From Candidatus Aenigmatarchaeota archaeon (GTDB taxonomy: Archaea; Aenigmatarchaeota; Aenigmatarchaeia; Aenigmatarchaeales; JACQIB01), in the NCBI GenBank assembly GCA_046760225.1, contig JBHIDR010000016.1, positions 1 to 18,793 of the forward strand: a DNA stretch of 18,793 bases, in the 5' to 3' direction. Both the position numbers and the translations under genes were made by a program. Position 1 is the stretch's first letter; each line of letters opens with the position of its first letter. Positions 1,954-9,281 of the stretch are shown here, piece by piece. The notes beneath the pieces are model-generated. The model was given only the letters and a program-made list of their open reading frames with translations, did no database searches and was not told where the DNA came from.

Positions 1954-2071
1954 TGGTGCGCCGACTGGGATTCGAACCCAGGTTATCAGCTTGCTTCAGC
2001 AAGCTTGGAAGGCATCCCCATGGCTTCTGTTCTGGAAGTCATTTGAGGTCCTACCACTAGACTATCGGCGC
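1954..2071 (-). tRNA. tRNA-Gly(TCC) with two introns (29/30 and 37/38)
   Basis: Mature: GCGCCGA TA GTCT AGTGGTA GGAC C TCAGC CTTCCAA GCTGA TAAC CTGGG TTCGAAT CCCAG TCGGCGC A CCA (74 nt). Introns: 2014-2043 (30 nt, 29/30) and a 14-nt 37/38 intron AGCTTGCTGAAGCA (1992-2005; central helix CTTC/GAAG). Confidence 0.9.
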
Positions 2072-3356: not shown

Positions 3357-3584
3357 TGGTGGGGCCAGAGAGATTCGAACTCCCCTCTGCGGGTATCACC
3401 CTGCGAAAACGCAAATACCCGCGTTTTCTTTCACAGCAGACAAAACGAAGTTGCTTTGCAACTTCAATTCGTCGCTCAACGCTCCACCATAAGTCTGGAG
3501 CCCGCCTTCAGGAAATACAAGAGAGCTTGTATTTTTATCCTACCTGGCTAGACTATGGTTCTGGCCTGAACAAATCAGGTCCCC
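3357..3584 (-). tRNA. tRNA-Trp(CCA) with three introns (4/5, 25/26, 37/38)
   Basis: Mature: GGGGCCA TA GTCT AGCCAGGTA GGAT G GCGGG CTCCAGA CCCGC AGAG GGGAG TTCGAAT CTCTC TGGCCCC A CCA (76 nt). Introns: 3559-3580 (22 nt), 3507-3536 (30 nt), 3395-3494 (100 nt). Anticodon at 3496-3498. Confidence 0.88.
3395..3494 (-). ncRNA. tRNA-Trp 37/38 intron, putative box C/D-type guide for Cm34
   Basis: Guide TGGAGC (3481-3486) is antisense to G31-A36. D'-like TTGA (3476-3479) places C34 at the N-5 position, followed by a hairpin and C'-like GTGAAAG (3428-3434) forming a K-turn. Euryarchaeal tRNA-Trp introns are known C/D guides. Confidence 0.6.
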
Positions 3585-4259: not shown

Positions 4260-4357
4260 TGGAGCCCCGGGAGGGATTCGAACCCCCGACTTGCCGCTAA
4301 CCCCCGCCCTAACGGGCGCTACAAGGCGGCCGCTCTACCGGGCTGAGCCACCGAGGC
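4260..4357 (-). tRNA. tRNA-Thr(TGT) with a canonical 37/38 intron
   Basis: GCCTCGG/CCGGGGC acceptor, T discriminator, encoded CCA, GCCGC/GCGGC anticodon stem. 21-nt intron at 4299-4319 with a CGCCC/GGGCG hairpin; mature length 77 nt. Confidence 0.93.
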
Positions 4358-7981: not shown

Positions 7982-8173
7982 TGGTGTCAGGGGCGGGCTT
8001 CGAACCCGCGACTTCTGGCCCTCGTTTTAGAGAGTCTCCAGATCTCTCAGCCTTAAGTCATACCAGCTTAGCTGGTCATAACTCATACGCATATGAGTTT
8101 CGCCGGAGGCTCTGGCGCTCTACCAGGTTTCCCGCCATCAGGCCTCAGCCTAAAGGCTCTGAGCCACCCTGAC
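7982..8173 (-). tRNA. Elongator tRNA-Met(CAT) with four introns (15/16, 30/31, 37/38, 45/46)
   Basis: Mature: GTCAGGG TG GCTC AGCCTGGTA GAGC G CCAGA CTCATAA TCTGG AGGTC GCGGG TTCGAAG CCCGC CCCTGAC A CCA (77 nt). Introns: 8128-8158 (31 nt), 8099-8111 (13 nt; CGCC/GGCG), 8044-8091 (48 nt; CTCA/TGAG), 8013-8035 (23 nt; CTGG/CCAG). G1-C72 argues against initiator; Ile2 is not fully excluded. Confidence 0.88.
8044..8091 (-). ncRNA. tRNA-Met 37/38 intron, putative K-turn/box C'D' guide for Cm34
   Basis: Guide TATGAGT (8081-8087), D'-like ATGA (8076-8079), stem CCAGC/GCTGG, 3-nt bulge, C'-like ATGACTT (8055-8061), CTGA at 8047-8050. The N-5 base pairs with C34. Confidence 0.6.
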
Positions 8174-9085: not shown

Positions 9086-9281
9086 TGGTGGGCCCAATGG
9101 GATTCGAACCCACGACCCTTCCCGGACAGCTTTGCTGTCTCTCGGTGTCTCCACTCACAGAACCTTACGGTTCTCGTAAAGCTCCTAGAGGTTAAGAGCT
9201 TCACCACCACTTCTGGTTCGAGTGCTCTACCAGATTGCCCGAACCTTTGAATTTTCCAAGGGCTCTCTGAGCTATGGGCCC
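9086..9281 (-). tRNA. tRNA-Lys(CTT) with four introns (15/16, 30/31, 37/38, 43/44)
   Basis: Mature: GGGCCCA TA GCTC AGTCTGGTA GAGC A CTCGG CTCTTAA CCGAG GGGTC GTGGG TTCGAAT CCCAT TGGGCCC A CCA (77 nt). Introns: 9235-9266 (32 nt; GCTC/GGGC), 9200-9218 (19 nt; CACT/GGTG), 9147-9192 (46 nt; CTCT/GGAG), 9119-9140 (22 nt). Confidence 0.88.
9147..9192 (-). ncRNA. tRNA-Lys 37/38 intron, putative K-turn/box C'D' guide for Cm32
   Basis: Guide TAGGAGC (9181-9187) is antisense to G31-A37, then TTT, D'-like ACGA (9174-9177), stem GAACC-GTAA-GGTTC, bulge TGT and GAGT. The N-5 base pairs with C32. Confidence 0.5.

Follow-up and report, generated by a model that had tools for sequence, protein, structure and literature searches.

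The window, meaning the whole stretch of 18,793 nt that was analysed, carries a tRNA-Lys(CTT) gene of 196 nt, with the CCA encoded, at 9281-9086 on the minus strand. The genome to which it belongs is an 851-kb bin in 83 contigs, 83% complete, assembled from hydrothermal-vent metagenomes. It is probably that of a DPANN archaeon of Aenigmatarchaeota type, but the assignment is weak: an aldo-keto reductase encoded nearby is 63% identical to that of a Candidatus Aenigmatarchaeota single-cell genome, and the hits that follow are bacterial. The gene is composed of five exons of 15, 16, 7, 6 and 33 nt, read by hand and checked by script, and four introns of 32, 19, 46 and 22 nt, found at tRNA positions 15/16, 30/31, 37/38 and 43/44 respectively. 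Introns 3 and 4 were merged by the automatic alignment, and their boundaries were set by hand from the orthologues. From the 5' end of the gene, its parts are as follows.

9267..9281, minus strand: exon 1, positions 1-15 (5' strand of the acceptor stem, 5' strand of the D-stem, A14 and G15), colinear with the intron-less orthologue in G030
9235..9266, minus strand: intron 1, 32 nt at 15/16; central helix 4/4, inner helix 5 bp, no outer helix; HBh' type
9219..9234, minus strand: exon 2, positions 16-30 (D-loop, 3' strand of the D-stem, position 26, positions 27-30)
9200..9218, minus strand: intron 2, 19 nt at 30/31; strict hBHBh', with central helix 4/4, outer helix 4 bp and inner helix 4 bp
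9193..9199, minus strand: exon 3, 7 nt, positions 31-37, containing the anticodon CTT
9147..9192, minus strand: intron 3, 46 nt at the canonical 37/38 site; central helix 4/4, with a 6-bp GUAA hairpin inside
9141..9146, minus strand: exon 4, 6 nt, positions 38-43
9119..9140, minus strand: intron 4, 22 nt at 43/44; central helix 3/4 (relaxed), inner helix 6 bp
9086..9118, minus strand: exon 5, positions 44-76 (variable loop, T-arm, 3' strand of the acceptor stem, A73, encoded CCA), matched by BLAST in relatives

Removal of the introns leaves 77 nt with the anticodon CTT, which form a cloverleaf incurring no penalties in a check of stems and conserved bases. The preliminary description, made from the letters alone, had read here a tRNA-Lys(CTT) interrupted at these four sites, with 119 of its 196 nt intronic; both the penalty-free cloverleaf and the colinearity of the intron-less orthologue confirm that structure. 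The gene is called neither by ARAGORN in its default mode nor by the Rfam tRNA model, and when introns are allowed ARAGORN wrongly returns a serine tRNA with one 123-nt intron. It is the only gene for the anticodon CTT recovered in a census of this 83%-complete genome.

About 0.9 kb away lies an elongator tRNA-Met(CAT) gene, likewise with four introns, which ARAGORN with introns allowed miscalls as a leucine tRNA. Together with three other tRNA genes, these bring the total for the window to 14 introns in five genes.

7985..8173, minus strand: tRNA-Met(CAT), elongator
8158-8128, minus strand: Met intron, 31 nt at 15/16
8111-8099, minus strand: Met intron, 13 nt at 30/31
8091-8044, minus strand: Met intron, 48 nt at 37/38
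8035-8013, minus strand: Met intron, 23 nt at 45/46
4263-4357, minus strand: tRNA-Thr(TGT), with a 21-nt intron at 37/38; called Tyr by ARAGORN
3360-3584, minus strand: tRNA-Trp(CCA), with introns at 4/5 and 25/26 and a 100-nt intron at 37/38
1957-2071, minus strand: tRNA-Gly(TCC), with introns at 29/30 and 37/38

Junctions and splicing of the tRNA-Lys(CTT) precursor

A BLAST search of the tRNA-Lys(CTT) gene against 60 related genomes produced matches to exon 5 only, sometimes to exon 2; the loci fetched from these relatives sit behind the same small zinc-ribbon gene. The orthologue in G030, a member of the same order, lies downstream of this gene too, is without introns and is colinear with all five exons. 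Orthologues could be resolved in 13 relatives, five of which have no intron and a further five, including G001 of the same genus, only the one in the anticodon loop. The remaining three have introns at 37/38 and 43/44 (G003), at 8/9 and 43/44 (G033) and at 22/23 (G032), and in all 13 the 15/16 and 30/31 sites are uninterrupted. The 43/44 intron of G003, 25 nt long, ends in the same seven bases as Lys intron 4, and its 6-bp hairpin, a compensated helix, differs in sequence, whilst the G033 intron at this site is 15 nt long. Canonical introns related to Lys intron 3 occur in four relatives (G001, G002, G006 and G010), and in these, as in the gene described here, the 37/38 intron has a hairpin set between GAG and GUGAG-like strings in a kink-turn-like arrangement.

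The junctions were accepted because the orthologues are colinear, the splice motif being weak evidence by itself: a motif-light enumeration constrained by the cloverleaf and requiring three of four central pairs allowed at least 2000 splicings of the precursor, amongst them a four-intron alternative with the anticodon GTG, and hence was not decisive alone. BHB motifs were scored as central, outer and inner helix, the cut being placed 3' of the second base in each 3-nt bulge. Introns 1, 2 and 4 score (4,0,5), (4,4,4) and (3,1,6) respectively; intron 2 is a minimal hairpin intron, ending in GGTGAA at its 3' end, that fits a textbook motif into 19 nt. Intron 3 starts from (4,1,0) in the unspliced precursor and reaches (4,5,0) when the other three have left it, its outer helix lengthening from 1 bp to 5 bp with the loss of introns 2 and 4. 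When compared with the arrangement of a BHB intron (two 3-nt bulges around a 4-bp helix, and at least one flanking helix), introns 1-3 have 4/4 central pairs and a flanking helix, and intron 4 is relaxed, with 3/4 central pairs and a 6-bp inner helix; their removal restores the cloverleaf, and both an endonuclease and RtcB are encoded in the genome. The precursor folds with z = -4.6, better than all 200 of 200 shuffles, forming the acceptor stem, the T-arm and three intron hairpins. Self-splicing introns of group I or group II were considered and rejected, as the Lys introns are only 19-46 nt long and have no ribozyme core, and Rfam finds no intron family in the window.

The splicing machinery includes two adjacent PF01974 endonuclease genes on contig C2 (G000:C2:22790-24355; L038 1297-2862). 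The downstream gene has the conserved catalytic His and, just before it, a 7-residue insert shared with the Nanoarchaeum equitans catalytic subunit 3iey_A, its best solved relative (E 4e-35), which the Methanocaldococcus jannaschii enzyme does not have. The upstream gene has no His at the catalytic site, and the two make up a Nanoarchaeum-like pair of catalytic and non-catalytic subunits. In both, R-A-x stands in place of the R-K-K of the M. jannaschii and N. equitans enzymes. This stretch presumably surrounds the catalytic lysine of the M. jannaschii enzyme. The RtcB ligase is encoded on contig C35.

We infer from these sequences that the transcript is spliced at all four junctions. The gene would be transcribed as a precursor of approximately 196 nt, from which the archaeal tRNA-splicing endonuclease would excise the four short introns at their BHB motifs, with RtcB joining the exons. 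Introns 1, 2 and 4 bear their own motif in the primary transcript. The outer helix of the canonical intron 3 is the anticodon stem, which would form only when introns 2 and 4 have been removed. As that helix would form only at this point, splicing is probably ordered.

That the locus is instead a decayed pseudogene, riddled with insertions and never spliced, could be argued from the failure of standard tRNA finders to call it; yet all five exons are intact and match their orthologues, every insertion lies at a BHB motif, the position behind the small zinc-ribbon gene is kept, no other tRNA-Lys(CTT) gene was recovered and around 35 other tRNA genes of the genome are built in the same way, so that we regard decay as very improbable. 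Still harder to credit is an assembly artefact, for which the fragmentation of the bin into 83 contigs might speak: contigs from four metagenome runs, all of one study, cover the locus without any difference, and amongst them are two samples that are not marked as a possible source. One contig of run X1 skips 9127-9266, with 24 letters on the shorter side of the joint; the joint is tentatively taken as belonging to another organism's Lys tRNA gene rather than to a spliced DNA copy. We hold with high confidence that tRNA-Lys(CTT) is a functional gene, its precursor of about 196 nt being cut at four BHB introns by the endonuclease and rejoined by RtcB, that it is one case of a genome-wide intron-rich state, and that the 15/16 and 30/31 introns which it shares in position with tRNA-Met are gains specific to the lineage. 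Against this reading speak the three of four central pairs of intron 4, the missing outer helix of intron 1 and the R-A-x of both endonuclease subunits.

Interrupted tRNA genes across the genome

The genome was surveyed with a set of 80 mature reference tRNAs from G001 and G030, the genes for which are compact or have one intron. A spliced-alignment scan was followed at each locus by an alignment rewarding BHB pairing, and then by the cloverleaf check. The background of the scan was high, with scores of up to about 72, and there were shadow peaks downstream of genes, hence loci were picked by hand from the ranked list. The first BHB-aware alignment gave introns a net positive score and over-split two compact genes, and was re-run with a higher intron cost. 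Two other approaches were discarded: T-arm anchoring as a gene finder, which returned no more than 27 loci and overlooked genes interrupted in the T-loop, and labelling by ARAGORN, which mislabelled many of the one-intron reference genes. Five candidate loci yielded no tRNA on realignment; one (on C3, ending at 26040) was dropped and three were set aside, whilst the fifth (C12 -17129), redone with a tighter window, is tRNA-Ile(GAT) and was counted. Also left out of the count were Leu-GAG, with its intron of about 0.9 kb, a His-like locus without a cloverleaf, and fragments of Leu-TAA and Gly genes at contig ends.

In total, 85 introns were identified in 42 tRNA genes, approximately 2.0 per gene; they amount to 2520 nt, with a median length of 29 nt. 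Seven genes have no intron, ten have one, eleven two, six three and six four, with a single gene having five (Ile-TAT) and another six (Phe-GAA), such that eight of the 42 contain between four and six. Genes for Tyr, Cys, Pro(TGG) and Thr(GGT) were not recovered by this census of the 83%-complete genome. The introns comprise 64 with a canonical BHB motif, 18 with a relaxed one and three with none. A canonical motif is present at 63 of the 84 automatically called junctions, a rate biased upward by the pairing bonus used to place the boundaries, as against 37 of 1344 control junctions, which were shifted by 5-12 nt and scored as the best of three shifts. At 53 of the 84 junctions only a single placement is compatible with the mature sequence.

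The six-intron gene, tRNA-Phe(GAA), lies at G000:C2 ~21139-21355 on the plus strand and has introns at 9/10, 30/31, 37/38, 43/44, 53/54 and 59/60, its shortest exons measuring 6 nt; the compact gene in the same-genus genome G001 is colinear with it. An initiator-like tRNA with A1:U72, three G:C pairs closing the anticodon stem and four introns was found at G000:C18:16738-16907 on the plus strand. As assembled it reads CAG, where its orthologues in G001, G003 and G006 read CAT, which could be a sequencing variant or something stranger. Compact, intron-less second copies exist beside the interrupted genes for Trp(CCA) (C2:28102-28172), Asn(GTT) (C17:6814-6885) and Thr(TGT) (C6:28348-28419).

Infernal detects just 16-18 of these at least 42 tRNA genes. 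Across the 60 relatives (G001-G060) the number detectable by Infernal ranges from 3 to 54; many genomes that are at least 90% complete have fewer than 15, and several that are 95-98% complete only 3-6, compared to 41 in G001, which suggests that the interruption of tRNA genes is very uneven across the class. G001 has about 0.4 introns per gene according to ARAGORN (in 16 of 41 genes), against approximately 2.0 in the present genome. Given the many near-complete relatives with fewer than 15 detectable tRNAs, the interrupted state is widespread in the class. Hence the tRNAs missing from DPANN bins are largely an annotation artefact, since Infernal finds so few of the genes present here and only 3-15 in many near-complete relatives.

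Positions and relatedness of the introns

The preliminary description had proposed that introns gather at position hotspots, or spread site-specifically between tRNA genes sharing an exon context, namely GCTCAG preceding the 15/16 junction. When tabulated across the genome, the introns are not uniformly distributed: they occupy 24 distinct positions, with 20 introns at 37/38, 18 at 59/60 and ten at 30/31, far above the uniform expectation of about 1.1 for each of some 75 junctions (tail probabilities of 2e-19, 9e-17 and 2e-7 respectively). The 29/30 and 8/9 sites each have four introns, the 43/44 and 45/46 sites three each and 15/16 two. Hotspots are thus borne out at 30/31 and 37/38, two of the sites shared by the Lys and Met genes, but not at 15/16, which is used in these two genes only. 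The exon context GCTCAG is present at positions 10-15 in nine of the 42 genes, of which only tRNA-Lys(CTT) and tRNA-Met(CAT) have the intron.

The T-loop site, 59/60, is the geometric twin of 37/38: in both, a 5-bp stem closes a loop of 7 nt that is cut one base short of its end. The ten introns at 30/31 are short, diverse hairpins, the last six bases of which are mostly GGYGAA and pair with exon positions 25-28. In our reading, introns concentrate where conserved exon sequence permits a BHB to form, at 37/38, its T-loop twin and 30/31.

All introns were aligned against one another, and representatives of the resulting families were searched for with blastn-short. A score of z >= 8 was reached by 20 of 250 pairs of introns at the same position, against 5 of 1659 pairs at different positions. 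Three families were found at 59/60, each occurring in three to five different tRNA genes as copies 91-100% identical by blastn.

Family A, 59/60, 42-43 nt: Leu-CAA, Gly-GCC, Glu-TTC, Arg-CCT, Pro-CGG
Second T-loop family, 59/60, 35-37 nt: Leu-CAG, Leu-GAG, Gln-CTG, Ser-TGA; more distantly Glu-CTC, His, Ala-GGC
Third T-loop family, 59/60, 54-56 nt: Leu-TAG, Lys-TTT, Thr-CGT

The representatives of the three families gave 13 blastn hits, every one of them within a tRNA gene and none elsewhere in the genome. The five strong pairs at different positions all involve a copy of family A at 37/38 of Pro-CGG, a gene that also has family A at 59/60. In addition, Ile-GAT and Ile-TAT have an identical 23-nt intron at 8/9. 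Copying of introns between tRNA genes is therefore real in this genome, and is documented for the three 59/60 families. Amongst the 60 relatives, only G011 (75%) and G004 (71%) match family A across the intron, in a Leu gene, on account of which the near-identical T-loop copies look like a recent burst in this lineage. An origin of the introns in duplicated adjacent exon sequence was rejected, the similarity of introns to their own mature tRNA having a mean z of 0.07 and exceeding 3 in one case out of 85.

No match to PF00078, the reverse transcriptase domain that might have marked a helper of reverse splicing, was found in the 83%-complete genome. LAGLIDADG frames adjoin several tRNA genes, one being at 1986-2924 on the minus strand of the window, at tRNA-Gly(TCC), with others on contigs C1, C72, C4 and C3. 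LAGLIDADG frames of up to 500 aa number 19, of which three extend 10-86 nt into a same-strand tRNA gene from its 5' side (Gly-TCC, Leu-TAG and Pro-GGG), one reads through Thr-CGT and one, of 315 aa, fills the 37/38 intron of Leu-GAG.

Set beside one another, the Lys and Met genes agree in three of four intron positions, the fourth being at 43/44 in one and 45/46 in the other, two nucleotides apart, whilst the interiors of the introns differ, both as had been noted from the letters. Global alignment of the four pairs gave z = 2.3, 2.6, 1.5 and 0.3, representing no significant similarity. The four Lys introns show no clear sequence relation to the tRNA-Met introns, as members of a transposed intron family would, and the best other pairing of a Lys intron is a weak one (z 5.8) between 15/16 and the 17/17a intron of Arg(TCT). 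Intron sequence consequently does not demonstrate copying between the two genes, and the proposal of site-specific spread stands for the three T-loop families but not for the pair that gave rise to it. The Met orthologue of G001 has the 37/38 intron only, and those of eight further relatives have 37/38 either alone or accompanied by 59/60 or 3/4; in none of these nine resolvable relatives is there an intron at 15/16, 30/31 or 45/46, the row for G003 not being cleanly resolved. Contigs from other runs, two in all, differ within the Met gene at 15 variant sites and by one 2-nt insertion, every one of which falls in introns 2-4 and none in an exon, a distribution that fits the exon map.

The two genes might nevertheless have a linked intron history, being neighbours that both gained 15/16 and 30/31 introns absent from their relatives' orthologues, with 15/16 used nowhere else. 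One way in which this could have come about is copying of these introns from one gene to the other, by local gene conversion or by site-specific insertion guided by the shared D-arm exon, followed by divergence beyond recognition. The restriction of 15/16 introns to just two of 42 genes, 0.9 kb apart, and the occurrence of inter-gene copying in the genome are both in keeping with this; however, z values of 2.3 and 2.6 are within noise, the intron ends that the genes share are what BHB pairing to a shared exon demands, and in seven further genes GCTCAG at 10-15 is not followed by an intron, leaving the idea a rather doubtful one. Independent origin, with the positions coinciding because few sites in a tRNA permit a spliceable BHB, strikes us as about equally liable to be right or wrong. 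It accords with the use of 30/31 and 37/38 as hotspots in many unrelated genes, with the diversity of the ten 30/31 introns, the last six bases of which complement exon positions 25-28, and with the view reached for Asgard archaea in the accessible part of a 2026 preprint (10.64898/2026.10.13.758758), but it leaves unexplained why the rare 15/16 site is used in just two adjacent genes, and the near-identical 59/60 copies show that copying does happen in this genome. In the reading that we favour for the genome as a whole, introns multiply when copies pass from one tRNA gene to the equivalent site of another, as the three T-loop families show, by a route that we can only infer, and the 15/16 and 30/31 introns of the Lys and Met genes are lineage-specific gains from a donor no longer recognisable by sequence.

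A more speculative proposal, which we put forward tentatively and expect is more probably wrong than right, is that a burst of non-autonomous mobile elements is under way, these elements being the short introns of the T-loop, the anticodon loop and 30/31. They would pass as copies from one tRNA gene to structurally equivalent sites in others, the copying possibly triggered by the LAGLIDADG endonucleases whose genes abut or lie inside tRNA genes. The 15/16 and 30/31 introns of the Lys and Met genes would then be fresh products of this process.

Relation to other interrupted tRNA genes

Multi-intron tRNA genes and intron transposition are known from the Thermoproteales (Sugahara 2008; Fujishima 2010, as summarised in PMC8450103), and the sections available of the tRNAscan-SE 2.0 paper (2021, PMC8450103) give up to three introns for an archaeal tRNA gene, and 71 introns, distributed over 46 genes, as the highest total. 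As far as these summaries describe them, the Thermoproteales resemble the present genome in having several short BHB introns to a gene, in both canonical and non-canonical places, with related introns in different tRNA genes; unlike them, this DPANN genome has 4-6 introns in eight of 42 genes, and an endonuclease of a different lineage. In Asgard archaea, 92-95% of tRNA genes are stated to be interrupted (PMC11291895, in the portion available), and the accessible part of the preprint (10.64898/2026.10.13.758758) gives 2.2 intervening sequences per gene and up to five in one, reporting there neither a general way in which they arrive nor evidence that they are copied from one tRNA gene to another. 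On that account the two cases are alike in that most tRNA genes are interrupted, about twice each, at BHB sites, with many missed by standard annotators; they differ in the near-identical copies found in different genes here, and in the one gene with six introns. The six introns of tRNA-Phe(GAA) exceed the published maximum that was found, which is the five given in the available part of that preprint. A search of the available literature turned up neither a DPANN tRNA gene described as having four or more introns nor an archaeal one with six.

Inserted loops in DPANN endonucleases have been tied to more disrupted tRNA genes, and incomplete tRNA sets noted, in the accessible text of Kaneta et al. 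2018 (PMC5829648). The enzyme pair of this genome is like those DPANN enzymes and the N. equitans heterotetramer (3iey_A) in having the same insert before the His of its catalytic subunit and a partner without the His. That study, as far as it is available, contains no per-gene intron map of an Aenigmatarchaeota-like genome such as the one presented here. In the nuclear genome of the red alga Cyanidioschyzon merolae, non-canonical tRNA introns are removed before that at 37/38, as established by RT-PCR in the part of the report available (PMC3728597). That system likewise has BHB introns in the D-arm, anticodon loop and T-loop, and the order of removal suggested here for tRNA-Lys(CTT) is the same; it differs in being a eukaryote with, on the same partial account, at most three introns per gene.

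The tRNA-Lys(CTT) gene is an ordinary multi-intron archaeal tRNA gene of a known kind, in a host genome that is unusually extreme and little described. The route by which protein-spliced tRNA introns enter genes is unsolved, the Asgard survey (10.64898/2026.10.13.758758) having found none in the portion of it available. The present genome is suited to the study of intron gain, as it combines copies 91-100% identical in different tRNA genes with a jump between the T-loop and anticodon loop of a single gene, and also offers an intron-poor relative of the same genus and homing-endonuclease genes pressed against tRNA genes. Should the tentative reading of these introns as mobile elements in an ongoing burst prove true, the genome would offer a natural setting in which to learn how archaeal tRNA genes acquire introns.
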